Shown here: positions 12,237 through 54,252 of the stretch, one piece after another
Layout of the letters: every line of letters starts with the position of its first letter
Position numbering within the stretch: the stretch's first letter is position 1
Assembly: GCA_038087875.1 (NCBI GenBank)
Contig: CM075991.1
Coordinates: 12,898,001 to 12,958,000, forward strand
DNA length: 60,000 bases
Reading direction: 5' to 3'
Source of the DNA: Malacoraja senta
Taxonomy: Eukaryota
Position numbers and translations under genes: made by a program
Notes under the pieces: generated by a model
Seen by the model: only the letters and a program-made list of their open reading frames with translations
Database searches by the model: none
Told to the model about the DNA's origin: nothing

Positions 12237-13324
12237 TTTATTTAAGAAACAGAGCATTGTTTAAAGCACTTAGTCTGTTCAACAAATGCAAAACCAACAC
12301 AAGCATGACAAAATGCTAGAGTAACTCAGCGGGTGAGAAGGAATGGGTGACGTTTCAGGTCGAGACCCTTCTTTAAACTGATCATCACTACTACAGCCAC
12401 ACAGGACTAAGACCAATCAAGTAAATCTTCAATCTCTATCAATTATTAAAACTCCATCACATTTACAAAGTATTAGCCTCTTGTTGTAAAATTACTGCCA
12501 GCCCCCTCCTACATGGTTGGTTTGTTACATCTGCTTGGAAGCTGTCCGAATTCATCAATAGCAACGTTATGCAACACTTGACAAGGTGCAAGAGTAGAAA
12601 TATAAGAGATATTCACTAAATAGCAATGAATTGTTTCTAAATACTGTTTAATTTCTGCAAAGTGCTTTATTGAACATTAACATTTCACCTCAAACTTAAC
12701 ATCAAGATATTAACAGTTTAAACTTCATTCAATTGTTGAGCAACAGTTGTTTCCCACACATCAGGAAATTCCTTCAGATTTAAAATACAGCACAGGTGGC
12801 CATTTAGCCCATTAAAATGTATACTGGCTCTTGGCTTTGCAATCCCATCAGCCGCACCCCTCCCCCACCTGTATTTGTTCCCTCTCATTGAACCAGCCAC
12901 GGTTGAAAATAGCTTCCCTGTTTTAGGTCTCTGAACTCACCAAAATCTCTGTGAAATTGCTTTGCTCCTAAAGATTGTAGGGTTAGAGTCGTCTCATCTC
13001 TTCCATGCACAATACACTGACGTTTAGCCAATCACCAATCCTTTCCTTTTAAAATGTTACATTTCAGCAGTTGCTTAGGAAATAATTACTTTCTATCAAT
13101 CTGTGTTAGACAAAAGCTCTACCTAAATATGCAGCATCCAGAAATGATTAGTTGGAAGGAAAAAAGATAATGCGTTTCATTTGGACACTTCAATTAAAGG
13201 GAGTGTGCTGAATATAGAATTAAGCAGAAGCTATAGCGACACAAAACTGCTTCAAAATACACACGCACACAGCCCGAATCATCATTTAACTGGTCCCGAA
13301 ATGGAATCTCCTTTGATTTTTATT
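12237..13324 (-). promoter_or_regulatory. Candidate polyadenylation signals of the SFTPB-like gene (AATAAA on - at 13319-13324, 12666-12671, 12237-12242)
   Basis: TTTATT on the + strand downstream of the stop codon; which one is used cannot be told from sequence. Confidence 0.45.
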
Positions 13325-13364
13325 AAATTTGCTGCAGTCTTCTGCCAGAGATGCTAAATTAGCC

Positions 13365-13400
13365 TTATATCCAGCCGTGTTCCTCGCAGTATTTAGTACT
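13365..13400 (-). CDS. SFTPB: SFTPB-like exon 11 (STKYCEEHGWI*)
   Basis: Acceptor tttatag|AGT; TAA stop; completes SapA like prosaposin AVEHCKRHVWN. Confidence 0.88.
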   Translation of the reverse strand, partial: STKYCEEHGWI

Positions 13401-16400
13401 CTATAAAGAAAATCAAAAACAAGATTAGTTTGAATTACGAGAAAACAGCATGCTTCATCCACCAGCCACCTACTCTTCAAAACTCTTTGTCTCATTCCTC
13501 ACGCTCGAGCATCACCTAACCATTTCTGGAGAAAATGGACAGGTGATGTTTCAGGCGGGCTGAGTGAAGGTGTTCTGCAAAACGATCGCCCAGTCTACGT
13601 TCGGTCTTGCCCATGTATAAAAGTCCACACCTTGAACAACAGATACAGTAGATGAGGAGGTGCATGTGAACCTCTGCCTAACCTGAAAGGACTGACGGGG
13701 TTCCTGGTCCAAGTCAAGGGAGGAGGTAGACACAAGTGCTGGAGAAACTTAGCGGGTGCAGCAGCATCTATGGATCGAAGGAAATAGGCAACGTTTCGGG
13801 CCGAAACCCTTCTTCAGACTATTCAGGAGGTATGGGGACAGGTGTTGCATCTCCTACGGTTGCAGGGCAATGATCCCGCTAACCCTCGTGGGATCACTGG
13901 ATCAGGGATCAATTCTGTAGATCCTTGCTGAAATATCAGGTCTAGTCCCTGTACTCGAATAAGGATAGATGTGATAGAAAGAGTGCAGCCAATAGTCAGT
14001 AGGTCGGTGACTGGGATGGTGGGTTTGTGATGCAAGGAATGATTAAATAGCTTGTGTTTTTGATACAAGATTTAGAGAGGATCGATCCTATTGAAAGGTA
14101 CAAACATTGATCGGGTGTTCAGAACCATGGTCACAGTGCATACGGGGCTAGACAATATGGACAATGATGAAGATAACATATCTTCAGAGGGGAGTGAATC
14201 TTTGGAATCTTCTATCAAATAGAACCATGGAGGCTCAGTTGTCAAGTTACCAGGACTTGAGGACCGGAGCTACAGGGAGAGGTTGGGCAGGCTAGGTCTC
14301 TATTCCTTGGACCACAGGAGGCCAAGAGGGTGATCTTATAGAGGTGATAAAACCACGAAGGGGATTAGAGAGGCTAAATGCACAGTCTTTTACCCAGAGT
14401 AGAATAATCAAATGAAACAGAGAGCATTGGTTTAAGGTGAGAGGGGAAATAGTTAATAAGAAAATTGAGGGGCAATCTTTTCCACACAGAGGGTGATGAG
14501 TATATGGAACAAGGTGCCAGAGGAGGTAGCAGACACAGGTACTACAAGAACATTTGGACAGGTACATGGATAGGAAAGGTTCAAAGGGTTATGGGTCAAA
14601 AATAGGCAGGGGGACTAGTATTGGCTAGCTTGGGCAAGTAGGGCTGAAGGGCCTGTTTCCATGCTGTGTGACTTCAAGAGTGAGGTTGATAAATTTTTAG
14701 ATAAAGGTAATCAAATAAGAAGCAGATAGAGCTAGAAAACTAAATGGCAGAGCATACTTGATGGGCCGAATGGCCTACTTCAGCTCCAACTCTTATGTAT
14801 CTGGTGTCCCTTTTCTCCAGAGATGCTGCCTGACACTCTGAGTTACTCCAGCACTTTGTGTCTATATTCAGTGAAAACCAGCATCTGTAGTTCCTTCGTA
14901 CACCTTATGTTCTTACAATTCATTTCTACAAATCAGAGCTTGTAACACTGAGTCTGTGTAAATTGTATTTAGATCTTTAAGTTCTAACTTGGATGTGCCA
15001 GGAATGTGAAAGGCATGCTCTCAATTCTGAATTGTGGATCCAAATCAAAACTAGACACAAACAACAATCAGGCTCGAGGGTCACCCTTAATTTCTTGTCC
15101 CAATAAATTTCTACTGCTGTCATTTCCCCAACATCACATGAAGAAATTAAGTCATACTTACTTTGCAGCGAGCGGCTATTGCTTTATCCGAGCACCAGTG
15201 GGCTGGTCCCCAGGTACATTCATTTTTTCCAAGCTGTCTTACTACGGTCTTTCTTACACAGAGATCAAGGTCCTGTTAATAAATCATATACACAGTAATG
15301 TTTGCACAGCCACTCTACCCACTCCCAACCTGCCCAAGTCCTTCTGCAGTCTCTGCTTTCTCCACACTACCTGCACTCCATCTATCTTTGAATCATCTTC
15401 AAATATGGCCATAAAGCCCTCAATCCCCTCATCATTGATATACACTAGCGGTCCCCCTGTGGAACTCTGTTAGTCACTGGCAGCCAACAAGAAAAAGCCC
15501 CCTTTATTGCCACTCTTTGCTTTCTGCCATCCATCCAACCTGATATCACTAACATCTTCCCTTTGATACCTTAGACTCTCATCTTTAACAAGTCTCACGT
15601 GCGGTACCTTAAAAGCTTTTTGAAAATGTAGATAACATCCACTGACTCTCCTTTGTCTGTCCTGCTAATTACTTCCTCCCTCAGGGGCTAAAGTCCTATC
15701 AATAAATCATATACATGGCAATGTTTGAACTGCCACTCTCCCAACCTGCCCAATTCCTTCTGCAGTCTCTGCTTCCTCTAAACTACCTGCCCTCCATCTA
15801 TCTTTGAATCATCTGCAAACTTGGCACAAAGCCTTCAACTCCCTCATCAACCTCAAGTTCAAGTGAGTTTATTGTCATGTGTCCCTGATAGGACAATGGA
15901 ATTCTTGCTTTGCTTCAGCACAACAGAATATAGTACGCATTTACTACAAAACAGATCAGTGTGTCCATATACCATTATATAAATATATACACACATGAAT
16001 AAATAAACTGATAAAGTGCAAATAACAGATAACGGGTTATTAATGTTCAGAGTTTTGTCCGAGCCAGGTTTAATAGCCTGATCGCTGTGGGGAAGTAGCT
16101 ATTCCTGAACCTGGTCGTTGCAGTCCTGTACCTTCTACCTGAAGGTAGCAGGGAGATGAGTGTGTGGCCAGGATAGTGTGGGTCTTTGATGATACTGCCA
16201 GCCTTTTTGAGGCAGCGACTGCGATAAATCCCCTCGATGGTAGGGAGGTCAGAGCTGATGATGGACTGGGCAGTGTTTACTACTTTTTGTAGTATTTCCT
16301 CTCCAGGGCGCTCAAGTTGCCGAACCAAGCCACGAAGCAACCGGTCAGCATGCTCTCTACTGTGCACCTGTAGAAGTTAGAGAGAGTCCTCCTTGACAAA

Positions 16401-19400
16401 CCGACTCTCCGTAATCTTCTCAGGAAGTAGAGGCGCTGATGTGCTTTCTTGATAATTGCATCAGTGTTCTCGGACCAGGAAAGATCTTCGGAGATTTGCA
16501 CGCGCAGGAATTTGAAGCTCTTGACCCTTTCAACCATGCTGATATAAACAGGACTGTGGGTCCCCATCCTACTCCTTCCAACGTCCTGCTATCAATGCTA
16601 GGATTTTCCCTTTCATACCATCTACTTTAGCAACCTCACCTTCAGCACCTTAAAGCCTTTGTGAAAATCTAGATAGACAACATCCACTGACTCTCCTTTG
16701 ACTGTCCTGCCATTTACTTCCTCAAACAGTAGCAGAATATCTTCACTCTTACCTTGCAAATGTCCTTTGATTTATCGGACATGGGAATCATCGTTTCGAG
16801 CTGGGGTTTGTAAGCATAAACAAAGTCTTCACACTAAGGGGCGAATCAGATTAAAACAGTTAATCAGCTGTTCTGTTCTGATAGAGCTAATGATTTATAT
16901 TATTGCATTGTTCTTCATATGTAGGCGAATTCCAGTACAAAACTCTTAACTAATGGGGGGGAAAAAAAGACAGTGACAGTACTAATACACAGTATAGTAT
17001 GGATGGCATGGTGGCGCAGCAGTAGAGTTGCTGCCTTTCAGTGGCAGAGGCCCAGGTTTGATCCTGACCAGGGTGTTGTGTGTACAGAGTTTGTACGTTC
17101 TCCCTGTGACCACGTGGGATTTCCCTGGGTAATCCGGTTTCTCCCACACTCCAAAGACATACAAGTTTATAGGCTAATTGGCTTTGATAAAATTGTAAAT
17201 TGTCCCTAGTGTGTAGGTAAGTGTTAGTGTGCAGGATCGCTGGTCGTCGTGGACTTGGTGGGCCGTAGGGCCTGTTTCTGCATTGTATCTCTAAACTAAG
17301 CCAACTAATGTCAGTACAAAGTGTAGGAAAGAACTATAGATGTTGGTTGACATCAGTCATCAGTCCACCCACTCCCCCAACATCAGTCTGAAGGAGGGTG
17401 TCGACCCTAAACATCACCATTTCCTTCTCTCCAGAGATGCTGCCCTGTCCCGCTGAGTTATTCCAGCACTTTGTGTCTAATGTCAGTGCACTACAATGTA
17501 CTGAGAATAGTTAAACCAGGAAGAATGAACAAGGGGTGAAAATCAGTGATGTAATTGCAGCTAAATTGATTAATTAACAATGAAAGTCCACCAGACATCA
17601 TTGAACTTCAAGGATCCAGTTAGGTCTGACAAGCAAACAGATATTTGCATGATGGGTTAACCCAATGTAGCCGGGCAGCAGAAGAGCCAGGAGGAGGTGG
17701 AACACCAAAGATAGACAAAATGCTGGAGTAACTCAGCGGGACAGGCAACATCTCTGGAGAGAAGGAATGGGTGACGTTTCGGATCGAGACCCTTCTTCAG
17801 ACTTTGTGTACCAAGGTGAACTATATTCATGGAAGTTCCTAAATATTTTTATGCTTCAAAATAATATTCTTTAACATAATTTCACTTCCTTTCATCACTT
17901 CTACTTCTGTATTCAGTTGCAACAAAAAAAAGTGGATGTACCCGACAATGTGTCCTTGTACACCAGAGACTCTTGCTAAACATTTGCTTCCTCCTCCACT
18001 GTTGTGTGAACTTCACTTTTTGAAGAAACGTTTTTCTAATATGGGAGTGGAGGCACAGCCACATTTCCTGCCCGTCCCTCCTTGAACAGGTGGTGTTCTT
18101 CTGGGGTAGGTACTTCCAAAATGCAGTTGTGTAGGGAGATCCAAGACACAATGAAGGACTAGTGATTCATTTCAAAGTCCGGAGGGTTTATGGATTTAGA
18201 GGGTGGTATGCCTACTGCCTAGGTTCACATCATTTGGATGTGGTCACAGGTTTGGGAGAGGCTATTAAGCAGCATGGGCAACTAACTGCAGGGCATTCTG
18301 TAGATGGCTCACAATGGCAGCGACAATTACTATTTTACATCAGCATTTACATCAGCTTCATTGGTAGTTCCGTATAAATTTAAACCTTATTCAATATTCA
18401 GCAAATATCCTTACTTCTGATCTAATAAATTCATAAGTTAGAGGAGCAGAATTAGGCCATTTGGCCCATCAAGTCTACTCTGCCATTAATCATTGCTGAT
18501 CTATCTTTCAGTCACAACCCCATTCTCCTGCCTTCTCCCCATAACCACTGACACCCGTACTAATCAAGAATCTATTAAGGGCCTGTCCCACTGTATGAGG
18601 TAATTCAAGAGTTCTCCCGAGTTTCCCCCCCCCCCCCCCCGATTCGAACTCAGAGATTGTCCGTAGTGGGTCCGTAGGCGTTCGTGGATGTCTTGTAGCG
18701 GCTCGTAATGCTAACGGTAGGTACTCGGGAAATCCGGTAAACTCGTGACATTTTTTCAATACTGCAAAAAATGTCCACGAGTAAAACAATACTCGTGATG
18801 AAAAAATATGGTTACTTTTTACTCGTACAAGCCGCTACGAGACATCCACGAACTCCTACGGACCCACTACGGACATTCTCCGAGTTCAATTCAGGGGAAA
18901 ACTCGGGGGAACTCTTGAATTACCTCGTACAGTGGGACAGGCCCTTTCATCTTTGCCTTGAAAATATCAATTGATGGCCTCCACAGCCACCTGTGGCACT
19001 GAATACATGTCCCCACTCAATAGTCTTCAGGCAATGCTTTGTAGCACTGAGCCCTGTGCCCCAAAACTACTGACATATCTGGTCCACCTTTTGTACAATT
19101 TCAATATTGAACCAATAATGTGGACATTTGATCAGGAACATCATTTGAACAAAGGAAGAAAAGTCCAATCTGACTCATTGCTGCCCAATCAGTCCACTCT
19201 CACATCCTCCACCGCTGATGGAAGGCATTGTCAACACTCATACCTTCTGGATCTCCTTGACTCACCAAGAGAAAGGGCGTCCCTGACAATGAGCTGCAGG
19301 TTTTAATCATGTCTGTGCCACTCTTCTGACCAAGGGAGAGATGGTTCACCATTTTTTCACATCCGTCACAAGTTGGCATACCCAGGTCATCAGTCAGTTC

Positions 19401-22400
19401 ATCTACATTGTGGGAGAAATTCATGTTAGACAGGGTACAGACTTTATCTGTAGACTTTTCTAGACACTGATCCTTCTTTTCATTGCATTCTTGCAACGTT
19501 GGTGAAATTCCACCACTAAAACACCCTTGACACCAATGTTGTTACCTGCTGCTCTACACTGGGGGAAAAACCACAAAGTTAGGAAAAAATTTAGAGTTAA
19601 AAAAATGATGGGACTCATTGGTCAGGCAGCATCAGTCCATCATCGGCTCTGACCTCCCTACCATCGAGGGGATCTATCGCAGTCGCTGCCTCAAAAAAGC
19701 TGGCAGCATCATCAAGGACCAACACCATCCTGGCCACACACTTATCTCCCCGCTACCTTCAGGTAGAAGGTACAGGAGCCTGAAGACTGCAACGTCCAGG
19801 TTCAGGAATAGCTACTTCCCCACAGACATCAGGCTATTCAACTCAACTCAAACAAAACTGTGAACATTACTAGACCATTATCTGTTTATTTGCACTTTAT
19901 CTGTTTATTTATATATGTGTGTATATATTTATATTATGGTATATGGACACACTTCTGTTCTGTATTCATGCCGTCTATATTCTATTGTGCTGAAGCAAAG
20001 CAAGAATTTCATTGTCCTATCTGGGACACATGACAATAAACTCTCTTGAATCTTGAAGTTTAAAGGGGCAAAGGTTTAGAGGGTGGTGAGTGCTTAGATC
20101 ACACTGCTAGGAGTGATAGTTGATGCAGATACAGTACAGTGTTTAAGAGACTTTTGGATATGCAGGGAATGAGCAGATGTGGATTATGTCCAGGTAGATA
20201 AGAGATGGTCTTGGCATCATAGTGGGCCGAAGGGCCTGGTCCCATGCTGGACTGTTCTATGTGGCAGTGAACATAACATTACAAGATTTAAGTTAACTGT
20301 AGAAAAGGAACAATCTCAAGTAACAATAATTGGACAGATTAATTTCAACAGATTGGGAGAGACACTGGTTCCCAGGTTAAATTGAGGTAAAGATGTAGCA
20401 GATTAGGCCTCCTTAAGGAAGCAAAGGTTCAGATGAGGCTCTATCACATGAGGAACCAGAAGCAACAAAGAGATTCAGAGCATCCTTGGATGATGAAAGA
20501 CACAGAAAATTATTGCAAAAGAAAAAGGTTGTTTATGAGTAGGAACGAGAACCAGGTTGATTTCAAAATAGTCCGGAATGAAAACTTGAGGCAAAATAAT
20601 GAGCAAGGAAAGATTAGCTGCAAATGGGAATCTGAAGGCGTTCTAATGAGTGCATGCCTACAGAAAATTTCTTGAGAGATAGAATGTATTAAAGAAAAGA
20701 ACAGGAGTTGACTCTGCCACAGGTTAGATGTTGTATCAGTCTTCACCAGGAATAATAAACACTTGCACAATGATAGTAATGTTGGGGAGTCCAGATCCAG
20801 GGGCCACAGTTTAAGAATAAGGGGTAGGCCTTAAGGACTGAGATAAGGAAAAACATTTCACCCAGAGAGTTGGGAAATTCTCTCCCACAGTGGAGGCCAA
20901 TTCACTGGATGTTTTCAAGAGAGTTAGATTTAGCAAAGGGAATCATGGGTTATGGCGGGGGAAAAAAAAGAGAACAGGGTACTGATTCTGGATGATCAGC
21001 CATGATCATATTGAATGGCGGTGCTGACTCAAAGGGCAGAATGGCCTACTCCTGCACCTATTTTCTATGATTGGATTACTTCCTACACAGAGTCTTTATT
21101 TTTCAATAGACCACGATGTAAACACCCCGATCTAGAAATTGAAACGCACATCCTCAATTAAAAGATGGCGAGATCACTGAACTTTCCCTGCAGTTCACAT
21201 AATCTGATTCATCCAGACTCCTGAATGTATATGTAGGATTACCCTGGATAAATATGACTATGAAAACTATTTAAATGAAGTTCAGCAACATGACCAGAGC
21301 ACTTGTTGAGAACATTCCAAAGGCAATCAGATCCATTGATGGGAGGGAGGAGGGTTGTAAAGAAATGGGCTGCAAGTAATCAAGGAATTAGTGGATTTAA
21401 TCCACACCTGGAAGTGACCTCAATCACCAATCCCTCAAGGGCAAACTTCCAAAAGCAACAATTGTGCAGATAAGTTTGCTCCCCCAGGAGGGCAAGATTA
21501 GCAACAGATCGAGCCAACAATCCTCTCCCGTTGTAGGGCCACATGGAGATACAACTAAAAGCAGTTTTTTAATTTTTTCCACTGGCAGATTGTCAATTTG
21601 CTACCTTTGATACCAAATGAAGAGGAGCCATTTTGTTGGGGTAACCATTCTAAAGATGCCCTGTGACATGAAAGGAACTAGGGTGGGTGACAGAGGGAAT
21701 GGAAGAATCAACAAGACATTTGATTTTTATACCATGATCATCTGTCTTCACTTCTAAAAATGGAGAGCTATAAAATGGAGAGCTATAAATAAGGCCCCTC
21801 TATCGAGTTGTAAATGACTGGAGTTCTGGACAGTTACCTGATAAATCGACGAAGCAGAGTTTAAGACCAAAGCAGATAGCATTGGGCCCGAGTTGTTTGA
21901 GAATCATATCAATGATTATTGCGCCGTCATCTTTTACAAGCTCTTGGCACTTTTCAGAATATTGTTTGGGCACGACACTGCAAATCAGATTAAGCTCTTT
22001 GAGGATGAGAGCCTGTAAATGGATAAATTATCATTTATTAACAAAGCAAGCAAAGATAGGAACCACAACAATCCTACAACTGTTTCAGTCCCTGCCCTTT
22101 CACGGATTGTATATTGGAGAGGACATTATCCACCCTCTGAAAGGTGTTTAAAAAAAATTAAGAAATTAAGAAAAAGCAGCTAAATCAAGAAGTTGTGATG
22201 CCTTCAAACTTTGCCCCATTGAGTCATAGAACACATAGAAACATAGAAAATAGGTGCAGGAGTAGGCCATTCGGCCCTTCGAGCCTGCACCGCCATTCAA
22301 TATGATCATGGCTGATCATCCAACTCAGTATCCTGTACCTGCCTTCTCTCCATACCTCCTGATCCCTTTAGCCACAAGGGCCACATCTAACTCCCTCTTA

Positions 22401-25400
22401 AATATAGCCAATGAACTGGCCTCAACTACCTTCTGTGGCAGAGAATTCCACAGGTTCACCACTCTGTGTGAAAAATGATTTTCTCATCTCGGTCCTAAAA
22501 GACTTCCCCCTTATCCTTAAACTGTGACCCCTTGTTCTGGACTTCCCCAACATCAGGAACAATCTTCCTGCATCTAGCCTGTCCAACCCCTTAAGAATCT
22601 TGTAAGTTTCTATTAGATCCCCCCTCAATCTTTTAAATTTATAGTAAATGGCAGTCAATGCCGATAGATCCTCAGGGTGAACGCATGGCCGATATCAGAT
22701 TTAGTATCATAGAAGACAGAGTGAGAGAGAACAGTCGAGCAAACAGATACACGAGCCAAAGGTCCATCCTTATTGTATATTTGGCAAATAACTCACCTTA
22801 GTCCGTTCCGTTGGAAGAATTTTCTCCAGTTCTTTCAAAACAAGCAGACATAACTCACACGGTGGCAGATATTTCACCTGCAAAATAGATTTAATGGAAT
22901 TGTGATTACTCTGTACTTTAAACCATTCTTCAAAGGTGCAAGTGATAGATATTATGCATCACCAACCAAGTACTCCTGTAGAAGTCTGATACATATTACA
23001 GCATTACAACAAAACCTGACGACTCCAGTGAACTATTCCTATACACTTATACTTAACCAAGATTCTGCTTACGTGTTATAATCCTTTCTGAACAGCAGGC
23101 ACTGTACTTCCGTACTCGTGATAACAAAGTACCATTAGACCAACAGTGCATTTCAATCCCAAACTCAGAATACATTTTCACCATTACCTAGGCTGTATTT
23201 TTCCAACCGCCCCCCCCCCCCACAATAATTATCAGTGTAACAGAGGTATTTTGTGCAAACACGTTCCTATTGGAATTAGATGAACCTGTCATATCTCATT
23301 TCACTTACCATGAATGCTTCTTCCCAATCGTTTGAGGTTGGATTCCACTCTGGATTAAATGACTGAGATTTAGATCCCATGGAGTGTCACAGGTCACAAG
23401 GTCATGTGATAGGAGTAGAATTAGGCCATTCGGCCCATCAAGTCTACTCCACCATTCAATCATGGCTGATCTATCTCTCCCTCCTAACCTCGTTCTCCTG
23501 CCTTCTCCCCATAACCCCTGATACCCGTACTAATCAAGATTTATTCCACACTGGACTGCGGGGATGGGGCTGACCTCATTTTACCAGCTGCAGTCAAGAT
23601 CTAAACATGCGTGGTGCTGCATAGTTCTCAAATAACATTGTCCTTGCTAAGTTTTCTGCAGCTCAGCCTCTCCCATCACAGGAAGATCGAAAGACAGTTA
23701 AGGGCCTGTCCCACTTTCACGACCTTTTTTACTCGTGGACATTTTTCATCATGCTAGAAAAACACCCCGACCTACTTGATGCCACGAGTACCTACGACTA
23801 GCATCACGGCCTGCTACGACCTACCATGACCTTGTGACGGCCATGCTGCGAGTATGTAAAGGGCAAACTCGGCAGAGGTCGTGAATTAGGTCGTGAAAGT
23901 GGGACAGGCCCTTTAGAATCCACCGTATAAGGTGCTATAATTCCATTAATTAAATCGGAATTCCAGTGTCAGTAACTTTGACCAGGTATTGCAAAAGCCC
24001 ATCTGTTTTAGTAACAGCCACTGGGATCAGTCAGCTCGTGATCGGTTCTTAATCGTTGTTCAACTCAGCTGAGGTTAATTAAGGCGGAATCACACATTTT
24101 GGACTTGCCTGCAAAACTCAAATTCCACAATCTGATAAACAAAACCCAGCAAGATTGGTTACGTAGTGAATACAAATTGGAGGTTTCAATCCTTATTGTA
24201 CAAAGCAGGCATCAGAGAGTCATATAGGTTTGAAACAGTCCCTTCAGCAAAACCTGTTCATGCCAACCAAGGCATGAAAACTAAGCTAGTCCCATTCACC
24301 TACATTTTGGTCATATACCTCTGAACCATCCTTATCCATTCCCGTCATTTCTTTTCTAGCTTCCCACAGTGTCCTTAGCTCCATCTGATCAGGGACTATG
24401 ACATTTATCCAACTTAGTACGTCTTAGGGCATCCAGCACATTGTTGGCTTGCAATATGGATAGTCCTCAAGACACGTCTGTTAACTTTCCCATCTTCGCT
24501 AGTCTTTTGAGTCTTTTTCCACAGTAAAAACAGGAGAAATATTATTTGAGGGCCTTACCCATCTCCTGTAAATCTGCACATAGATGACCACTTTCATTTT
24601 TGAAGGGGACTATTCACTCTCTAGTTCCTTTCTCCCCATAACATACTCATGAAATCTCTGGAGTCTCAGTAATCTCAGTAGTCTTGTATGGCAGAGCTAC
24701 CTCATGTTATTTATTTGTCCTCTTTTAGTTTAGAGATACAGCACGGTAACAGGTCCTTCGGCCCACCGAGTCCGCACCGACCAGCGATCCCCGCACATTA
24801 ACACTAGGGACAATTTACATTTATACCAAGCCAATTAATCTACAAACCTGCACGCCTTTGGAGTGTGGGAGGAAACTGAAGATCTGAGAAAATCTACGCA
24901 GGTTATGGGGAGAACGTACAAACTCTGTACAGACAGCACCCGTAGTCAGGATCGAACCTGGGTCTCTGGCGCTGTGAGGCAAAGCAACTCTACCGCTGCG
25001 CTACTGCGATTTCCTTCTTGCATATGCTCCTCAATCCATCAGCGAGTTGCTGGATACCAGCTGCCTGTACCCGACCCATGCCTCCTCCTGGACTGCAGAG
25101 AGGGTACAGGTCCTCTCCAGCGTACCACCATCTGATGTATGCTTGGTGGCATGGGTTTGCTGGCTGCTGCAGGGGTAGTGGGCATCTTCTGCCCTTGTGG
25201 CAACTCGGTTTGTAGACGTATTTCCAACGTAAACTGTTGGGTGATGAAGGGTTGTCAGGAACAGAATCCTGTCCTAACCTGGGAAGAACTGGAATATACT
25301 TGACCTTGGGTCTAACCGAGGCTAAGTTACAATGCTCCTCATTAAAGTAACAGCTAACAAGCATGGAGAGGACACCCAGGAAGAATGGTTACCATTTGAG

Positions 25401-28400
25401 TTACCATTCCCGTTTAAGAATAGGGAGAGAAAATGAGTCATCATTGGTCCTCAGGTACGTGTGCTATCAATGATCACCATTCATAGCATTTTCCTAGCGG
25501 TCAAGTAACCATCCCTACACTGAACGCAGCCTAGATTGCCCGCTCTAATCTTGCCCGTCGAGTTTGGACTCAGAACCTTTCTGCCTCAATCAGAAATGCT
25601 TCCTTCCCTCCCACTCTGCAGCCGTTGCTGAAAGTCTAGGTATGCAACCTGTGGAATGATCTTACCTGCCGCTTCATTTCTGTCATTGTTTGATGCCGAC
25701 GATAGATGTCATGGCTCGGTTCAAGCTCACGGATGGCATTGGGTTCCTCTATGTCCTCGAAGTCTGGCAGCAGGCTGACACACAGAGCAGCACACAATGT
25801 CTCAGGATTCTTCTATGACCCAAAGCACAGGGTACACATGAAATGAAAGCTGACTGCATCAACCCATCTCCTCAGCTCTGGCTGATCTACTGTGTAACTT
25901 TCTGTAAATTCTATGTAGTTTTGAAAACAGACAGCGAGGTTGGCAAGTCACTTTGCAGAATCTTCCTTCCCAATTAGTTTTTCTTTTTCGTTCAGTCCCA
26001 GAAATTAACATGGATTTCCAGTGACTTGGTGTATTTAATTGTGATGTCTTGCTTTCATTACAAGACAGAATAAATGAAAAAAATGCACACTTTCACAATA
26101 GTCTTCCTTCACATTTACATTTTTAGATATAAAAAAAAAAAATCACAACTGACAAATCTATCCAAGATCATAATACAGAACAATGAAAAGTGGAAGTGGG
26201 TTAGTTTGATTCCGTTTAGAGATACAGCATGGAAACCAGTCAGTCTAGACCCGTTCACACCTGTTCTATGTTATCTCACATCCACTCCCTACACACGGGG
26301 CAATATGCAGCAACCAATTCAACTAAACACACGCACCTTTGAGGGTGTGGGAGGAAATCTGAGCACCCAGAGAAAATCCACGTGGTCACAGGGAGAAACT
26401 GCAAACTCCACACAGACAGCAGCCAAGATCAGGATGGAACCCGGGTCTCTGGCGCTGTGAGGCAGTGGCTCTACCAGCAGCATCGCCCACTTCAAATAAT
26501 GACATTTTAAGCTTTTTAAGGTAGATAAAAATGCTGGAGAAACTCAGCGAGTGAGGCAGCATTTATGGAGCGAAGGAAAAGGTGATGTTTCGGGTCGAGA
26601 CCCTTCTTCAGACTGACGAAGGGTCTCTACTTAAGCTTTTTATGCTGTTTAACAACTGATATTCATTTGTTTTGATATTGATCCCCAGCGATAGGCCAGA
26701 AGACCACAAAATTAAATTGCAAACACAAAATGTCTACTATTCAAAACAAAAAGTAATATTTAAACTAATTGATGTAGCAGCAGCTACAGAAAAATCTTAC
26801 TCAAAAACACCAGCAAGATACATCTGCGTGTATCTTGTTGTATCTTCTAGTTCCTCACACCCACATCATTTACAACTAAAATAGTTTAAAGTTCCACTTT
26901 CATTCTTAACAGCGACAGTAAAACCCGAAGTGAAAGTAATGGGTAGGAGAAGCAGAATTAGACTTGTTCTCGTTCATGTTGCCACTACATGTATCATCCA
27001 CAAACATCGTTCATCTTGCCACTACAAGTATCATCCACAAACATACTCACTAGCTCACTCTTCAGGAATTGAATTGCAAAGGGAAGAAAAGCTTCGACAT
27101 AAGTCGTACACTTGGCTGATAACGGCTTGGATGGGATCATGGAACAGATTTTGAGTAAGATGGCGTTCAAATCATCCTGCAAAATAGATAGGAACTGGGT
27201 GACCAGCATGCAGAGTGCAAACAAGCATTGTCAAATGAGAAACATGCAACTTAACCAGTCAAAACTAAATATACACAAAGTGCTGGAGTAACTCAGCAGT
27301 TCAGGCAGCATCTGTGGAGAACATGGATAGGTGACGTTTCACAGAGTGCTGAAGTAACTCAGCGGGTCAGACTGCATTTCAAGAGAAAAGGAATAGATGA
27401 CGTTTCGGGTCAAGACCCTTCTTGAGTCTGAAGAAGGGTCTCGACCGGAAACAACACCTATTCCTTCTCTCCAGAGATGCTGTCTGGCCCACTGAGTAAC
27501 TCCAGCTTTGTGTCCATCTTCGGTTTAAACCGGCATTTGCAGTTTCTTCCTACACAGTCAAAACTAACGATGTGCACAAAAATGCTGGAGTAACTCAGCA
27601 GGTCAGGCAGCATCTCTGGAGAAAAAGGAATAGGTGATGTTTCAGGCTGAGACCCTTCTTCAGACTCGACCCGAAGGGTCCCAACCTGAAATTCCACCCA
27701 TCCTATTTCTCTGGAGTTGCTGCCTGAGATGCTGAGTTACTCCAGCACTTTGGTATAAACCAGTATCTGTAGTTGTCCGTTTATATAAAACTAATGAGGA
27801 ATTGCTGATAAATCTACAGCAGGGTTTTAGTCTGGCTTGTAGGTTTATTTGGAGCAGAAAGAATCTTGCCCACGACAGATCGATTTACCGCTGGGTCCTA
27901 ACACGCCTGGCCTGGTCTGGAAAACTGTTACTATGTCCAGTTCACTTATCAGAGTAGTATATCCATTTTCTGATCCGATCCGTACCCTTTCATACCTGTA
28001 GTTTCCCTTCCCCCTCACTCAGTCCGAAGAAGGGTCTCAACCCAAATCATCACCCATTCTCTCTCTCCAGAGATGTTGCCTGACCCGCTGAGTTACTCCA
28101 GCACTTTGTGTCTATCCTATCCGATCACAGTCATGTGTAGAGCATGGGTAAAGTACAACATTCCCTCCTACAGCCCCCACTACTTCCATTCCCAATGGGA
28201 AACCACCGATAGATCCAGACCTACTCTGACCCCCCCCCCCCTTTCACAGGGATGTGCCCAGTCAGTGCCACCTGCCCCACATGAGGAGCTGTGGAATGAT
28301 TCAGGGAGACATACCTGCACAGCCTTGTTCTCCACCACCTTGTCTACCGCTGCGGCAAGTTCCTTACACCTGGCGCACAGGTTGAACTAAAGGAAAGATA

Positions 28401-31400
28401 AGAAGCATGAATCTTGGCACCTTGTGAAATATGAAGGTGTTTTGGATATGGCTTTGCAAATGCTGAGAGATCATGTTAAAGAGGTTAAATTATTCACTTG
28501 CTTCTCTGTCTTCCCCATCCCCCACAACTTTTTTCCTGAACAATAAAATGTTATTCAGTTAGTCAGTTCCAAAATACTGAAAACATCAAAACTGCCCACC
28601 AGTTTGCAAACATCAATTAATCAATCATCAAATTATGTTGTCATCCTTACCCATGCCATGTTCACAGAAGGCTTCCAGAGTCCTCGTGGACATTGCGTGT
28701 TCCCTCTCCAGGGACACGTGGGCACGGACGTAAGCCTGAGAGATGGGCAGGCAGTCGACTCGGCAGAATCCTTGACTGCCTGCTACCTGGACCCGTGAAT
28801 GGCCTTCTTGGCCCTCCCCAACCAACCTTGCCCCCTCCGTACTGGGTGACCAAAGATCAAAAGCGTGGGGTTGAATTGCAGCTGAAACTTGAGTAGCAGC
28901 CCCTTCAGATATTTAAATAGGGGCTGCAATCTCTCACACTCCATACACACATGTACATGGTCTCTTCCACACCACAGAAGTGACAGGCGGCTGGCCTGTC
29001 TGTGAACCAACTTAAATATCTATTTCACGCCACTGCTCCGTACAACACTACTGCCCCAGGTCACTGGGCATCCACTGGCTGCCTTGCTTTGACAGCTTTA
29101 CAGTACAGCCTAATACACAGGTTGCCACTGCTTGGCCAGTTGCAACCTTCTGCACTCAATATCAAACTCTCTAATGTAGCAACTCATTCCTTCCACTTAT
29201 CCAATTTAACACTGCCATTGCGGTATTGGATGGTCTGGGGGGCGTGAGCCACATCCTTGATACTAACACTTTGTCCAGAAGATGCCCATCTGATCCCAAC
29301 CACTACAGTAACTCGTTTGGTATCACTCTATCCGGGATGTTTCTTTTCTTCTACATACCTTCTCTTCTACTCAAATGCTTTTTCTTGCTTCTGACCAGGG
29401 ATCAGACCTACAACCCTGTTTTTCTCTGCACAGATGCTATTTGACATCCAGAGTGCTTTGACAACCCCTAATCTAGGCATCGTTCTGCATTCTCTCCAAA
29501 GTCTCCAGATCCTTCCTGGAATTGGGGTAGCCAGAAGAGTACCCCACCAGAAACACAGAGAGCAGGGTCAGGGAGAGTACCATCTATGTTTTGTTGATAT
29601 TCAAGCCTGCACCAGAAAAAGTGAAGTGAAAAGTGAAAAAGTGAAGTGAGAAAGAGATTTCCATTGTGTAGCAATGTAAACTTCATTATTGCTTCACTAA
29701 ATCTGTTCTGGACAAAAACACGAGGCTAAAACTGTAGATCGTTGCTCAAATAGGAAATTTCTACATTAAAAAATGTACTCATTTTAAATGTACTTTATAT
29801 TAGCACGTTATTTTAATTTCAACATGGTTACTTCATCAGTGTTGCAACATCTTCAGCAGAGTTCTCATTTCCTCATAATTCAGACCTCTGTGGAGCAAAA
29901 CTCCACAACTTCCTTAGACACAAAGGTTGCTGTGAACGGTAATTATATTTCAAAAATATTTCATTGACCGCAGAATATTTTACTGTTGGAAACGGGTGCA
30001 ACACAAATAAAAATATCCAACTTGGTTCTTCTGAAGAATGAAGGAAGATGGTAGAGAAACTAAGTGTTTGCTACAGATTGTAAAGGGCTTGCATATAAAG
30101 GCAGGTCTGGATGAGCTCATGTCTAGCCAGGGTTGATTAAAGGCAGCCAACATCCAGTGATTCATTCAGATCCATTACAGAGAACAAATCTCACCAACCC
30201 AAGGACACATTGATGGCAGGCTTGAACTTGAAGAGATGAGAAGGCACTAGTGATTATGAATCAGTCACCGATTCCAAAGATGGGTCGTCTCCAGCTATGG
30301 ACTGTGCAAAAGAACCCTCTTGCATCCATGATACATAATCACAACATGCTTCACACTCACCCCTTTTGATTCGGACCATTCGGTATTCATACACTTCACG
30401 AACGAGCCACACTCTAGGGTAGTCTTCAGGTCCTTGCACATAGTCTCAACGTCGGGAGGACACGAGCTCTTCATCTCAGGACGGACCAGAACTGTGATAT
30501 AATAAACCAGAGTCATTGCCGCACCCAAAGCATCAGTCACTCTTTACTTTATCCTCCAACTCACACCCTGTGATGAAAAGTGTAGGAAAGAACTGCAGAT
30601 GCTGGTTTAAATCAAAAGGTAGACACAAAATGATGGAGTAACTCAGCGGGACAGGCAGCATCGCTGGAGAGAATGGGTGACATGAAACGTCACCCATTCC
30701 TTCTTTCCAGAGATGCTGCCTGTCCTGCTGAGTTACTCCAGCATTTTGTGTCTACCCGGTGATGAAAAGATCAATTCATGTTCTGGTGCAGTTTTATTGA
30801 CATTTGGCCTCAACCAATGTCTTGTGTGTGCATCTTGATCTGGATCTGCAGTTCCTTCCTACACAGAATAATGACTTTGCCAGTCTCAGTCTCACTGCCA
30901 CAATGGACAGAAGACCTCAGAGGAACTTCCCAATCCCTGTTTCTTCTCCATATTCTGCTGATTTACAATTGAAATTCTGAAAAATTCTTTGAATTGCAGC
31001 AGCAGGAAATGTGACTCGACAGCCCAGAAACCTACAGGTAGAATGTTGTCCACCCCACTGCACTAGTTTCCCATTGATTCCCCAATCTAGCAAAGCTGGG
31101 GGCAGGGTGCATCGCAGAATACCAGAGTTACTTTGGTGTGTCATCATCTCCAATATGCACGTCCATTAAGCAGCCTATGTGAGCAAGTGCGGAATTGGGA
31201 ACTTTACTCTCTATCCTAAAGTTTGGCCAATATTCATCCCTGATCACAGATTCTGGTTATAGAATCATTTAGTGATACAGAATGGAAACAAGCCCCTCGA
31301 CCCAACTCCTCCAACATATCTACCTACGCTCATCCCATTGAGTTGCACTGGGGCATATCCCAGTAAACCTTTCCCACCCATATACATATCCAAATGTATT

Positions 31401-34400: not shown

Positions 34401-36203
34401 TCGCAGTAGAGTGGAGACACAGGAAACTGCAGATGCTGGTCTATCAAAAAAAGTGCTGGAGTAACTAGGTCAGAAAAAGAGTCTCGACTCGAAATAGACA
34501 ATAGGTGCATGAGTAGGCCATTCGAAATGTTGCCTTTGCATCTCCTCCAGAGAGAGCTTTACCCACTGAGTCACTGTGTGTTTCTCATTGCGGTCTGGTT
34601 TTGCAAGATCTGCACTATCACAAGTACAGTTTTATTGATTAACTCCATTATCAATGCATCATTTCACTACCAGGACCATTCCATGCTCACAACCAAAGAG
34701 TCTTTCTAAATAATTAATATTTTCTTTATATATCCATCCACAGATGGCTGTGGAGGCCAAGTCAGTGGATATTTTTAAGGCAGAGATAGATATATTCTTG
34801 ATTTGTATAAGTGTCAGAGGTTATGGGGAGAAGGCAGGAGAATGGGGTTAGGAGGGAAAGATAGATCATTGAAAGGTGGAGTAGACTTGATGGGCCGAAT
34901 AGCCTAATTCTACTCCTATCACTTATGACCTTATCCTCTCAATCAATATCTTAAACACTTTGAAATGTTGATGGGATGCGAGAGAAAACAGTTCACAGCA
35001 AAATAAATGAAGGTATGGAGTTAATGGAATGGTTGAGAGCTGGCACAGACTGGGTGGGCTGAATGGCCTCCTACCTCAGGGGTTCCCGACCTTTTTTGTC
35101 CCATTTGTCCCAGGCAACTTTAATAGCACATAACAATGTTATTTCACTTATTTATGAACAACTAATGATGAACAGATACCTGTATACCAGAACCAAACAG
35201 TCAGTCAATGAGAAAAAATATGTACAAATCCAGAATCAACAAATTTACCCCCTGGGTAGGCGAAATTTACCCCAGGTTGGGAACTCTTGTTCTACAGCCT
35301 AAGGCAAACATGAAAAGAATCTACGAGATACTGGTGATAGACACTAAATGCTGGAGTAACTCAGCAGGACAGACAATATTTCTGGAGAGAAGGAATGGGT
35401 GGCGTTTTGGGGTCGAGACCCTTCTACTGTATAACAGATACTAGAGCTGACACCTAAGGTACTGTACACACACAATATGGCAGATATAAAACTGGTTTAG
35501 CAAAGGAAGGATTTAGAGCTCATAGAGCAGACCATGGAGAGGTCGAATGAACCAGGAAGTGACAGAGTTTAATGGACAGCTCCTTGCTTCGTGATTATTC
35601 AGCTCCACATTTAAAGGAGCAAAGTAACTGCGGATTAGATTCCAGTAAAGATTCCAGAACACAAAGTGCAGAGAAGCTGCAATCACAGAGCCGGTATACT
35701 GAGAGTCAGTCCGTAAAGCGACCCATAGAGATGGGGTCCCAGACACGGGCAACACAAGGGGGGGGGGTCGTCAGGGGACCCTCGCCGGGCCTGGGTCAAC
35801 TGGGCGACATGAATCTAAGTCGAGGGGGTGATGTGAGTCGGGGAACCGGCGCTGTGTTGTCATCAATGCAGCGGCGACAGGAGCGGGGGGAATGTGACCC
35901 AGTGTCCGGCAACCTCCCCCACCCCACCCCGGCAACGACCCCCCCCCCAGCCCCCCGCAACCCCCAGCCCGCGGTGGGGGAACACAACGCACTGACTGTC
36001 GCCAGAAATCTACAAGGGCGAGCGGGGTGAGAGCAGGACATCTCCAGACCCGGGGCCACAACCCGAGACACTGACGGCAACTCAATACCCCGTCACCCAC
36101 CCACCCCTGTCCCACCTGAACCACCACCCCTGTCCCCCACCCTCACCCTCTTATACCCACCTGGTGACAGACACAGAACGGCGAGGATAATCAGGGCAGC
36201 CAT
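13365..36203 (-). CDS. SFTPB: Surfactant protein B-like / prosaposin-family precursor, 379 aa, 11 exons: complement(join 36161-36203,30361-30491,28315-28386,27051-27176,25666-25812,22797-22877,21838-22012,19266-19402,16753-16833,15162-15272,13365-13400)
   Basis: The exons total 1140 nt with no internal stop, all junctions are GT-AG and phases match. Architecture: signal peptide, SapA, three six-Cys SapB domains, SapA. The 72-, 126- and 81-nt phase-0 exons correspond to the SFTPB exon layout as I recall it. Three SapB domains argue against prosaposin, which has four. SFTPB also neighbours USP39 tail-to-tail in human. Confidence 0.88.
13515..13870 (-). mobile_element. Penelope-like element fragment with a nested short hammerhead-motif repeat (about 13727-13820)
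   Basis: Minus-strand remnant QSFQVRQRFTC...(Y)MGKTERRLGDRFAEHLHS resembles a GIY-YIG endonuclease region of Penelope-like elements. Confidence 0.55.
14250..14670 (+). mobile_element. CR1-like LINE 3' fragment
   Basis: Remnant GLEDRSYRERLGRLGLYSL...GDLIEV, followed by a typical 3' tail ending gggcctgtttccatgctgt. Confidence 0.65.
15162..15272 (-). CDS. SFTPB: SFTPB-like exon 10 (DLDLCVRKTVVRQLGKNECTWGPAHWCSDKAIAARCK)
   Basis: Acceptor taacag|GAC, donor AAA|gtaagt; canonical SapA motif CTWGPxHWC. Confidence 0.93.
15851..16575 (-). mobile_element. Rex1/Babar-type (L2-related) LINE 3' fragment in SFTPB-like intron 9
   Basis: ORF remnants KSFKFL...IIKKAHQRLYFLRRLRR...NFYRCTVESMLTGC and KKAGSIIKDPHYPGH...LPSGRRYR...RFRNSYFPTAIRLLN; short (CTTGAA) tail. 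Confidence 0.85.
16753..16833 (-). CDS. SFTPB: SFTPB-like exon 9 (CEDFVYAYKPQLETMIPMSDKSKDICK)
   Basis: Acceptor ccttag|TGT, donor AAG|gtaaga; 81 nt; resembles human CKQFVEQHTPQL...TTCQ. Confidence 0.9.
17001..17300 (+). mobile_element. tRNA-derived V-SINE (HE1-like)
   Basis: Head GGTGGCGCAGCAGTAGAG...GGTTTGATCC (A/B boxes), core GAGTTTGTACGTTCTCCC...CCCACACTCCAAAGAC, tail CTAAACTAA. Confidence 0.8.
18578..18945. mobile_element. Harbinger/PIF-type MITE inserted in a LINE-tail repeat
   Basis: Long terminal inverted repeats AGGGCCTGTCCCACTGTA(T/C)GAGGTAATTCAAGAGTTC and an internal palindrome; TTA on the left, TTC on the right. Confidence 0.8.
19266..19402 (-). CDS. SFTPB: SFTPB-like exon 8 (DELTDDLGMPTCDGCEKMVNHLSLGQKSGTDMIKTCSSLSGTPFLL)
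   Basis: Acceptor atgtag|AT, donor TTG|gtgagt; phase 1-0; SapB3 Cys1-3. Confidence 0.88.
19630..20056 (+). mobile_element. Rex1/Babar-type LINE 3' end, same subfamily as 15851-16575
   Basis: QSIIGSDLPTIEGIYRSRCLKKAGSIIKD...RFRNSYFP, shared 3' UTR and CTTGAA tail. Confidence 0.85.
21838..22012 (-). CDS. SFTPB: SFTPB-like exon 7 (ALILKELNLICSVVPKQYSEKCQELVKDDGAIIIDMILKQLGPNAICFGLKLCFVDLS)
   Basis: Acceptor ttacag|GCT, donor TCAG|gtaact; SapB2 Cys3-6; CSVVP resembles human CRVVP. Confidence 0.93.
22225..22635 (-). mobile_element. CR1-like LINE 3' end
   Basis: RLRGDLIETYKILKGLDRLDAGRLF...SRTRGHSLRIRG...; (TTTCTATG)n tail. Confidence 0.85.
22797..22877 (-). CDS. SFTPB: SFTPB-like exon 6 (VKYLPPCELCLLVLKELEKILPTERTK)
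   Basis: Acceptor ttgcag|GTG, donor AAG|gtgagt; LPPCELC resembles LPYCWLC at the start of mature SP-B. Confidence 0.92.
23701..23912. mobile_element. Harbinger/PIF-type MITE, 212 bp
   Basis: TIR AGGGCCTGTCCCACTTTCACGACCT; TTA duplication at 23698-23700 and 23913-23915. A solo end of the same family lies at about 5065-5113. Confidence 0.85.
24722..25008 (-). mobile_element. V-SINE (HE1-like)
   Basis: Reverse complement of the SINE at 17001-17300. Confidence 0.8.
25666..25812 (-). CDS. SFTPB: SFTPB-like exon 5 (KNPETLCAALCVSLLPDFED...TEMKRQ)
   Basis: Acceptor tcatag|AAG (tandem NAGNAG alternative start at 25809), donor CAG|gtaaga; end of SapB1 plus linker. Confidence 0.85.
26203..26487 (-). 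mobile_element. Degenerate V-SINE
   Basis: Same head, core and tail, more diverged. Confidence 0.65.
27051..27176 (-). CDS. SFTPB: SFTPB-like exon 4 (DDLNAILLKICSMIPSKPLSAKCTTYVEAFLPFAIQFLKSEL)
   Basis: Acceptor ttgcag|GAT, donor CTA|gtgagt; 126 nt; SapB core. Confidence 0.92.
27269..27786. mobile_element. Two adjacent Penelope-type hairpin inserts
   Basis: Each has inverted GCTGGAGTAACTCAGC...GCTGAGTTACTCCAGC arms; CAGTCAAAACTAA is duplicated at 27256-27268 and 27555-27567. Confidence 0.7.
28315..28386 (-). CDS. SFTPB: SFTPB-like exon 3 (FNLCARCKELAAAVDKVVENKAVQ)
   Basis: Acceptor ctttag|TTC, donor CAG|gtatgt; 72 nt; CxxC start of SapB1. Confidence 0.9.
28640..29040 (-). mobile_element. 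Tx1/L1-type LINE ORF2 C-terminal remnant
   Basis: HVCMECERLQPLFKYLKGLLLKF...FNPTLLIFGHPVRRG...AKKAIHGSR resembles the post-RT Cys/His region of Tx1-like elements. Confidence 0.65.
30361..30491 (-). CDS. SFTPB: SFTPB-like exon 2, divergent N-terminal SapA (VLVRPEMKSSCPPDVETMCKDLKTTLECGSFVKCMNTEWSESKG)
   Basis: Acceptor tcacag|TT, donor GGG|gtgagt; four Cys and terminal Trp in SapA spacing. Confidence 0.88.
35077..35289. mobile_element. hAT-like MITE
   Basis: Imperfect TIRs CAGGGGTTCCCGACC and GGTTGGGAACTCTTG, internal AATTTACCCC repeats; the 8-bp TSD is only partly conserved. Confidence 0.5.
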
Positions 36204-36400
36204 CTCCGCTCCGGGAACACAGGACACCGACACTAACACTGACACTGACACTGACACTGATACAGACACCCCGACCCTGGCTCCGCGCCGCTGTAAATAA
36301 GCGCTGGTGCCGCCGGGCTCGGCCTATTAGCACAAGGACGCGCCCCTCCCGGGTTATGTCATCTCATCTCAGCCCAGCGCCGCGCTCTGCGTCACGTCTT
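35730..36400 (-). promoter_or_regulatory. CpG/GC-rich promoter and first-exon region of the SFTPB-like gene
   Basis: Clear rise in CpG and GC content against an AT-rich background; TATTTA-like motif on - near 36294-36299, about 90 nt upstream of the ATG. Confidence 0.65.
36161..36203 (-). CDS. SFTPB: SFTPB-like exon 1, signal peptide MAALIILAVLCLSP
   Basis: Good Kozak context gagATGG, hydrophobic leader, donor CAG|gtgggt; phase 1 matches exon 2; lies in a CpG-rich region. Confidence 0.82.
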
Positions 36401-47644: not shown

Positions 47645-49729
<2,085 letters not shown>

Positions 49730-49849
49730 GCGGTGATGAACTACCGCTGTGCCGATGGTGCTTGGCGAGGATCAGAAATGGAAGTAAGTGGGTGATTGTG
49801 GCTTTGGTGAGCGTTTCCAATCTGTCCAGCACAGAGCCACTGAGTGTTA

Positions 49850-53625: not shown

Positions 53626-54252
<627 letters not shown>

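Follow-up and report, generated by a model that had tools for sequence, protein, structure and literature searches.

A surfactant protein B gene in the skate Malacoraja senta and its saposin C-like middle domain

Structure of the skate SFTPB gene

The window analyzed here, a 60,000-nucleotide stretch of the Malacoraja senta genome, contains an SFTPB gene on the minus strand (36203-13365). Its 11 exons splice into 1140 nt that encode a 379-aa precursor with a sole, terminal stop codon, and all ten introns (784-5669 nt) carry GT-AG borders. The precursor has a signal-like start, a SapA domain, three six-cysteine SapB domains, and a second SapA domain, with 27 cysteines and no N-glycosylation sequons, and thus matches the intact product described in the initial annotation. 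In a crude control that ignores splice sites, we chained random segments matched in length to the exons, and none of the 20,000 chains was open. Using the Amblyraja and Leucoraja proteins as tblastn queries (E ≤ 1), we matched all 11 exons in order. Pfam searches of nine single exons placed two above the curated cut-off, gave saposin matches below the cut-off for three, and gave no saposin match for four.

Spliced support for the exon joins is partial. A 1990-nt contig from run X6, of a related skate, directly spans four of the ten junctions (exons 1-2, 2-3, 3-4, and 4-5) and agrees with the remaining six by length only; the contigs come from other species and are RNA by guess, the window's own sequence occurring in no run recorded as RNA.

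Features of the window:
35600..36500, no strand: CpG-island-like promoter over exon 1; GC 57-66%, CpG observed/expected 0.64-0.79 (window 0.33)
36161..36203, minus: exon 1 (43 nt, phase 1); encodes the ATG and a hydrophobic signal-like peptide; the X6 contig links it to exon 2
30361..30491, minus: exon 2; a degenerate SapA at the N-terminus; Pfam SapA at E 0.0048, short of the cut-off
28315..28386, minus: exon 3; first part of SapB domain 1, which is saposin A-like; other skates have one codon more
27051..27176, minus: exon 4; SapB domain 1; Pfam SapB_2 E 0.031, below cut-off
25666..25812, minus: exon 5; last part of SapB domain 1, then an acidic, poorly conserved linker
22797..22877, minus: exon 6; first part of SapB domain 2, which is saposin C-like (mature SP-B position); Pfam SapB_1 E 0.0013, below cut-off
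21838..22012, minus: exon 7; SapB domain 2; exceeds the Pfam SapB_2 cut-off (E 4.8e-05) and is spanned by the X6 contig
19266..19402, minus: exon 8; first part of SapB domain 3, a short and divergent domain
16753..16833, minus: exon 9; SapB domain 3
15162..15272, minus: exon 10; last part of SapB domain 3 plus the C-terminal SapA, the latter exceeding its Pfam cut-off (E 1.4e-07)
13365..13400, minus: coding portion of exon 11; last residues of SapA, then the stop codon; X6 and X14 contigs diverge from the genome at 13400
13000..13364, minus: 3' untranslated region (minimum extent); one contig per run in 4/4 runs; AATAAA at 13324, 12671, and 12242
349..10595, plus: 3' exons of a UCH-family gene, tail-to-tail with SFTPB; Pfam UCH E 2.6e-07; exons and stop seen

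The first 18 residues are identical to those of Amblyraja and Leucoraja. By alignment, the exon 2 SapA lacks the GP-x-x-WC motif that is present in Heterodontus and coelacanth. Exon 5 has two AG acceptors spaced 3 nt apart, and its 147-nt form agrees with the X6 contig. An AATAAA signal lies 41 nt downstream of the stop codon. Searches for a second or tandem copy gave one weak tblastn match (E 0.4-0.46) with 16 proteins across the 460 kb around the gene; genome-wide, a 61%-identical query (P0013) returned seven matches, all to this gene, and three weak ones (E 0.59-0.74) without confirmation from any saposin protein.

The CpG-island promoter would be compatible with broad expression. A motif scan of this promoter gave no NKX2-1, GC-box, CCAAT, ETS, or full E-box match. 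The same scan, uncontrolled for chance, gave two partial matches, one FOXA-like and the other CLEAR-like, to which we give no weight.

Gene neighborhood

The tail-to-tail UCH-family gene, from its translation, is presumably USP39, in keeping with the arrangement anticipated in the initial annotation, and we take two further neighbors to be GGCX and RNF181. Among 13 neighbor fragments, four exceed their Pfam cut-off (synaptobrevin, S-AdoMet synthetase, UPF0561, and PAX), with UCH just under it in that search and above it in another. ATOH8, proposed in the initial annotation as a synteny marker, was not seen within 200 kb of the gene in a short-motif scan. In cattle, SFTPB neighbors MAT2A, VAMP8/5, C2orf68, and USP39 (PMC12075139). 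The skate gene ends a putative MAT2A...C2orf68-USP39-like block that matches this arrangement.

Orthology to SFTPB

In a tree of 33 proteins, the window protein groups with Amblyraja and Leucoraja (100/99), and all eight elasmobranch rows fall together (100/100). The elasmobranchs and the SFTPB proteins of coelacanth, gar, and caecilian stand apart from 18 jawed-vertebrate prosaposins (PSAPs; 100/100), in a sampling of non-mammalian SFTPB with long branches on three SFTPB rows. None of the three outcomes that the initial annotation had set against its own assignment occurred, the spliced support coming from a related species; the protein does not group with PSAP, and a topology forcing the window protein together with skate PSAPs was rejected (p-AU 1.47e-42). 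In six of six species that have both genes, the SFTPB-type protein outscores PSAP. Tree, topology test, and neighborhood agree, and the gene is almost certainly orthologous to SFTPB; its host is a rajid-type skate, the kind of lungless cartilaginous fish that had been proposed. The same three lines support a role that would predate the lung.

The closest relatives share the domain order and 376-379 aa size class: Amblyraja radiata XP_032869785.1 (78.7% identity) and Leucoraja erinacea XP_055518437.1 (77.6%), which already carry the labels ‘pulmonary surfactant-associated protein B’ and ‘prosaposin-like’, respectively, the second being the label that had been suspected. The window protein differs from them at 76-82 residues, mainly in SapA, domain 1, and the linker, and lacks the one sequon of Amblyraja SFTPB. 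Tetrapod proSP-B likewise comprises a SapA and three SapB modules, and its mature SP-B carries an extra cysteine for an interchain disulfide dimer (PMC4933373); the skate gene shares this module set and neighborhood. The C-terminal SapA is kept in the window, coelacanth, gar, and caecilian but is absent from human proSP-B.

Amblyraja PSAP (XP_032868780.1) also has SapA at both ends and saposin A- and C-type domains, but the window protein has three SapB domains rather than four, shows 28% local identity, falls in a separate clade, and has no acidic glycosylated domains. The initial annotation had argued from this domain number; the count of three holds for the window, but it does not separate SFTPB from PSAP, because caecilian SFTPB has four SapB domains. 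A paralogue of prosaposin whose saposin B was lost independently, with only a superficial likeness to SFTPB, is a scarcely credible and largely refuted alternative. It draws on the PDB search with the Amblyraja orthologue, in which saposins C and A rank best and mouse SP-B comes after them, on the ‘prosaposin-like’ label of several orthologues, and on the finding of no other saposin precursor in the Malacoraja senta assembly, but it is contradicted by the tree and AU test, by the SFTPB-type neighborhood, and by the presence of both genes in three other skates.

Prosaposin in the assembly

PSAP was not found in the Malacoraja senta assembly with snake, Narcine, or Amblyraja PSAP queries, nor in genome searches with Pfam SapA, SapB_2, and SapB_1, which are weak searches (SapB_1 missed even SFTPB exon 6). 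Two weak SapA genome matches contain stops. As a measure of sensitivity, Amblyraja PSAP returned nothing, yet the 61%-identical SFTPB-type query recovered seven SFTPB exons. No PSAP was found beside CDH23/ANAPC16 in 400 kb of contig C14, a stretch with three 200-N gaps and a 37-kb duplication (99.8-99.9%), where the gene order departs from the human order. The missing prosaposin is most likely an assembly gap. Its loss in this species, with SFTPB as the only saposin precursor taking over the lysosomal job, would be surprising, and is very unlikely because three other skates retain PSAP and the assembly has gaps.

Domain character

Each of the three SapB domains has six cysteines in saposin spacing, with net charges of +1, 0, and -3. 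Saposin profiles score domain 1 best as A (65 bits) and domain 2 best as C (68 bits), and domain 3 is weak throughout (A 8, B 22, C 17, and D 13 bits); the third domains of coelacanth, gar, and Heterodontus score best as saposin D. None of the three scores strongly as saposin B, whose equivalent is absent. For the Amblyraja orthologue, the top PDB sequence and fold matches are to saposin C. Its predicted model is helical (mean pLDDT 62, pTM 0.27) with a TM score of 0.83 to saposin C at E 0.022, all fold matches falling short of E ≤ 0.001. Six-cysteine spacing and the predicted helical fold place the window protein in the saposin-like protein (SAPLIP) superfamily.

Domain 2 occupies the position of mature SP-B. 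It has six cysteines, a net charge of 0, and a GRAVY of 0.46, compared with seven cysteines, +4, and 0.77 in caecilian SFTPB and +3 and 0.92 in gar. Relative to mature SP-B, it lacks the dimer-forming extra cysteine, is not cationic, and is less hydrophobic. Domain 2 thus shows none of the features that distinguish lung SP-B (a seventh cysteine, a strongly hydrophobic character, and positive charge) and resembles saposin C, which makes it a natural ‘before’ state for the changes that render a saposin surface-active.

Evolutionary rate

SFTPB evolves several times faster than prosaposin in skates. Amblyraja and Leucoraja share 86.7% identity in SFTPB and 98.0% in PSAP (about 13% vs 2% difference), Amblyraja and Rhinoraja share 63.8% and 88.1%, and SFTPB is far faster in all six elasmobranch species pairs. 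Differences are more frequent in coding pieces (62/533) than in exon 11 plus the 3' UTR (23/401; Fisher p 0.002). A rough dN/dS of 0.82-1.22 over 533 nt, from minimum-change counts against four stand-in proteins, would fit relaxed constraint and positive selection equally.

Rapid change is common among immune effectors, and we tentatively consider, at somewhat less than even odds, that skate SFTPB is an effector under pathogen-driven positive selection. Drift under relaxed constraint, with a minor function, would accord with the same dN/dS and with the degenerate N-terminal SapA and domain 3; it is nonetheless improbable, given that all four skate-type sequences compared retain an open frame and three six-cysteine domains and that the signal peptide and domain 2 are 94-100% and 89-90% identical, respectively, to those of the two closest skates.

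Function of the skate protein

SFTPB in cartilaginous fish is already known, with copies reported in sharks and skates. The gene is not new, since close orthologues are annotated and a 2024 preprint covers bamboo shark sftpb, in another lungless cartilaginous fish, with a tree and expression in spleen, immune cells, liver, and gill; it traces the gene to the 2R duplications and proposes an antibacterial or immunoregulatory role (bioRxiv 10.1101/2024.07.14.603411). One more lungless fish confirms the point, already in print, that surfactant's single indispensable protein has a gene older than lungs. The available text of that preprint neither compares sftpb domain by domain nor gives a rate specific to the gene, and our literature search, in the portions of the sources available, found no study that addresses how skate sftpb is selected or functions. 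The ‘before’-state middle domain and the SFTPB rate in skates are our modest additions.

We favor, with a probability of roughly two in three, an immune or lysosomal lipid-binding role for the product. By analogy with its family, the precursor would enter the secretory pathway, and proteolysis in acidic compartments would free three small saposin domains, which might extract lipid or perturb membranes in lysosomes or phagosomes of immune and other cells; the product would not be a lung-type surfactant. The domain 2 features described above would thus make lysosomal or phagosomal lipid binding the likelier activity. Sugar-based lysosomal sorting depends on glycosylation, and therefore cannot apply to a protein with no sequons. 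The expression evidence comes from another species, the bamboo shark, where sftpb is expressed broadly, is high in spleen, occurs in immune cells, and is poorly co-expressed with abca3 (bioRxiv 10.1101/2024.07.14.603411). An antibacterial action resembling that of mammalian SP-B(N), which is bactericidal at acidic pH (PMC8538444, PMC7279303), may also be envisaged. SP-B(N), NK-lysin, and other antimicrobial saposin-like proteins share the six-cysteine helical fold and offer a possible working analogy, but the window protein is not single-domain, and its near-neutral domains, unlike the cationic ones of typical antimicrobial saposins, argue against an antimicrobial role.

The protein might instead be a housekeeping lysosomal activator that works alongside prosaposin, assisting sphingolipid hydrolases in the manner of saposins A and C, with no special immune role. 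The A and C scores of domains 1 and 2, the broad shark expression, the CpG-island promoter, and the C-terminal SapA retained as in PSAP would all suit such an activator. We consider it unlikely in view of the much faster evolution than PSAP in all six elasmobranch pairs, the retention of PSAP in other skates, and the lack of acidic glycosylated domains (+1/0/-3 and no sequons vs -11/-4/-6/-10 and three sequons in Amblyraja PSAP).

Less probable still is a protein secreted by gill, gut, or skin, surface-active or mucosal in its action, that would be a true functional forerunner of surfactant. The signal-like peptide, the absence of sequons, and an in situ signal in bamboo shark gill (bioRxiv 10.1101/2024.07.14.603411) are consistent with secretion at such surfaces, but domain 2, with no seventh cysteine, no net charge, and moderate hydrophobicity, points away from it, as do the low abca3 co-expression of shark sftpb and its highest level in spleen.

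Gene model and splice evidence

Rebuilding the gene from sequence places its 11 exons on the minus strand, with GT-AG boundaries in all ten introns. The joined exons (1140 nt) encode 379 aa and 27 cysteines with a single stop at the end, and an AATAAA lies 41 nt past the stop codon. The precursor comprises a signal-like peptide, SapA, three SapB domains of six cysteines apiece, and SapA; translated anew, it reproduces exactly the exon number, length, and domain order of the initial annotation. A crude control, 20,000 random chains built from segments of matching length, yielded no open frame, and the Amblyraja and Leucoraja proteins match all 11 exons in order. The gene is real, intact, and correctly identified.

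Features of the window
36203 to 13365, minus strand: SFTPB, exons 1 to 11
30361-30491, minus strand: N-terminal SapA, whose GP-x-x-WC motif is lost in skates and two sharks; the C-terminal SapA keeps it
25809-25815, minus strand: tandem AG acceptors of exon 5, 3 nt apart; an isoform one residue shorter is possible
13400-36160: SFTPB introns, dense with high-copy SINE/LINE-like repeats that dominate mapped-read depth
36300-37000: C-rich low-complexity tandem stretch directly upstream of exon 1, adjoining a CpG island
47500-54300: long simple repeats, with CA-type runs (~47600-49800 and 53600-54270) and a ~2.4-kb tandem array (50100-52500), producing long spurious ORFs

Splice evidence comes from one 1990-nt contig of sequencing run X6, from a related skate rather than the window's species and RNA only by guess. 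Among the runs recorded as RNA, none contains the window's own sequence. The contig spans exons 1-5, 7, and 11 plus the 3′ UTR. It runs directly from exon 1 to exon 2, skipping a 5669-nt GT-AG gap, and links exons 2-3, 3-4, and 4-5 (counting unmatched letters at the joints). In it, the 335 letters separating exons 11 and 7 add up exactly to exons 10, 9, and 8 plus 6; between exons 7 and 5 there are 97, six below the window, fitting the linker of the relatives P0002 and P0005 (Leucoraja), which is two residues shorter. From these joints and lengths, the splicing predicted in the initial annotation is seen at four of the ten junctions and fits by length only at six, in this related skate's contig of guessed RNA origin. 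Through the 27 listed coding differences from the window, 17 codons change the residue, 16 of them to that of P0002.

Orthology and gene neighbourhood

The window protein is 78.7% identical to the Amblyraja radiata “pulmonary surfactant-associated protein B”, 77.6% to a Leucoraja “prosaposin-like” protein, 60.8% to Rhinoraja, and 42.3% to a Heterodontus “prosaposin-like” protein. These identities mark the host as a rajid-type skate. We built a maximum-likelihood tree of 33 proteins picked from ~330, one isoform per species and gene; it contains neither mammalian SFTPB, PSAPL1, nor NK-lysin, and four rows are long-branched. The window protein groups with its skate relatives (100/99, 100/100) inside an elasmobranch clade of eight rows (100/100). 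This clade joins coelacanth, gar, and caecilian SFTPB, and a 100/100 branch splits off 18 jawed-vertebrate prosaposins and three outgroup rows, upholding the proposed SFTPB orthology. Grouping the protein by force with three skate PSAPs, as a skate prosaposin, costs 528 log units (p-AU 1.47e-42) and was rejected. In all six species having both, the SFTPB-type protein outscores PSAP as a match to the window protein.

Exons of S-AdoMet synthetase, synaptobrevin, and UPF0561 domains lie within 200 kb on one side of SFTPB, together with exons that we take to be RNF181 and GGCX, a matching Pfam hit being absent for both. On that side a UCH-family gene, ending at ~10595, stands tail-to-tail with SFTPB, as the initial annotation expected of USP39; the ATOH8 it also expected was not seen in a short-motif scan of 200 kb of 5′ flank. 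The 5′ side, where ATOH8 sits in mammals, is occupied at ~+100 kb by a paired-box gene of PAX2/5/8 type (L016:364-558, a nearby stretch), presumably PAX8. No second saposin gene was seen in a scan of 460 kb around SFTPB. In cattle, the accessible part of PMC12075139 places SFTPB in one 1.5-Mb window with USP39, C2orf68, RNF181, VAMP8, VAMP5, GGCX, and MAT2A, and PAX8 likewise on chromosome 11.

Domains and lung-peptide marks

Profiles of saposins A-D were built from 17 prosaposins; the top score of domain 1 is with saposin A (65 bits) and that of domain 2 with saposin C (68 bits). Domain 3 has diverged too far for the profiles to place it; its counterpart in coelacanth, gar, and Heterodontus is of D type. 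Because the four-domain SFTPBs (caecilian P0105, and P0041) are A-A-C-D, SapB number alone cannot define the family. In these proteins the saposin A-like domain is doubled and saposin B is not retained.

Human proSP-B, as described in the portion of PMC4933373 available, has an N-terminal SapA and three SapB modules; mature SP-B dimerises through one additional cysteine. The window's middle domain has six cysteines, net charge 0, and GRAVY 0.46, whereas that of caecilian SFTPB has seven, +4, and 0.77. The Amblyraja orthologue has saposin C as its top match both in sequence (E 9.5e-12) and in predicted fold (TM 0.83, E 0.022; model mean pLDDT 62). With such a middle domain, nearest to saposin C, this is an SFTPB gene without the marks of the lung peptide.

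Evolutionary rate

In 7/7 species pairs, conservation is lower for the SFTPB-type protein than for PSAP, including Amblyraja-Leucoraja (86.7% vs 98.0%), Amblyraja-Rhinoraja (63.8% vs 88.1%), and Heterodontus-Mustelus (41.6% vs 72.7%). The window differs from the X6 contig at 62/533 bases in four coding pieces and 23/401 in exon 11 plus 3′ UTR (Fisher p 0.002), and 5 of the 27 listed coding differences are synonymous. The rough dN/dS over coding pieces, from two sequences, is 0.82-1.22, varying with the stand-in protein. Given that the cysteines and signal peptide stay fixed, these two sequences hint at positive selection on SFTPB in skates; relaxed constraint may instead explain the ratio.

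Prosaposin in the assembly

Three other skates, Amblyraja, Leucoraja, and Rhinoraja, carry PSAP as a gene of its own. Six queries did not find prosaposin in the whole genome G000, which contains the window; there, a 61%-identical query recovered seven exons of the SFTPB gene. PSAP was also not found in the 400 kb of C14 that take in ANAPC16 and the end of CDH23 (G000:C14:12660001-13060000), a stretch with three 200-N gaps whose gene order differs from that in human. The plain reading is that prosaposin probably falls in an assembly gap, its likely chromosome having scaffold gaps; true loss is the less likely alternative. At C14:12728552-12803260, two copies of a 37-kb stretch carrying an hnRNP-like gene flank a 200-N gap and are 99.8-99.9% identical, so the duplication is probably false.

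Likely role

Saposin-type precursors are cleaved in acidic compartments into lipid-binding domains, and the skate precursor would be cut likewise. We propose, at a probability of roughly 0.65 and by analogy, that it serves in lysosomal or phagosomal lipid binding and is likely antibacterial, with processing, location, and activity all inferred. Counted against this role are the absence of sequons from the protein and its near-neutral domains. According to the accessible parts of PMC8538444 and PMC7279303, the N-terminal domain of mammalian SP-B is bactericidal at acidic pH and also promotes phagocytosis.

A skate SFTPB gene is already known in kind. The available portion of bioRxiv 10.1101/2024.07.14.603411, whose genomes include little skate and thorny skate, places sftpb at the 2R duplications, with a tree. 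It describes the bamboo shark gene as broadly expressed, with a mean FPKM of 84.9; expression is high in spleen and present in immune cells, and in situ signal appears in spleen, liver, and gill. The role it puts forward is antibacterial or immunoregulatory. Since it reports shark sftpb, its expression, and an immune proposal, the pre-lung role suggested in the initial annotation was already in print.

In the catshark orthologue (Scyliorhinus torazame, P0109), domains 1 and 2 are strongly cationic (+10 and +12, vs ~0 in skates); judged by sequence, its domains are better candidates than the skates' for NK-lysin-like killing.
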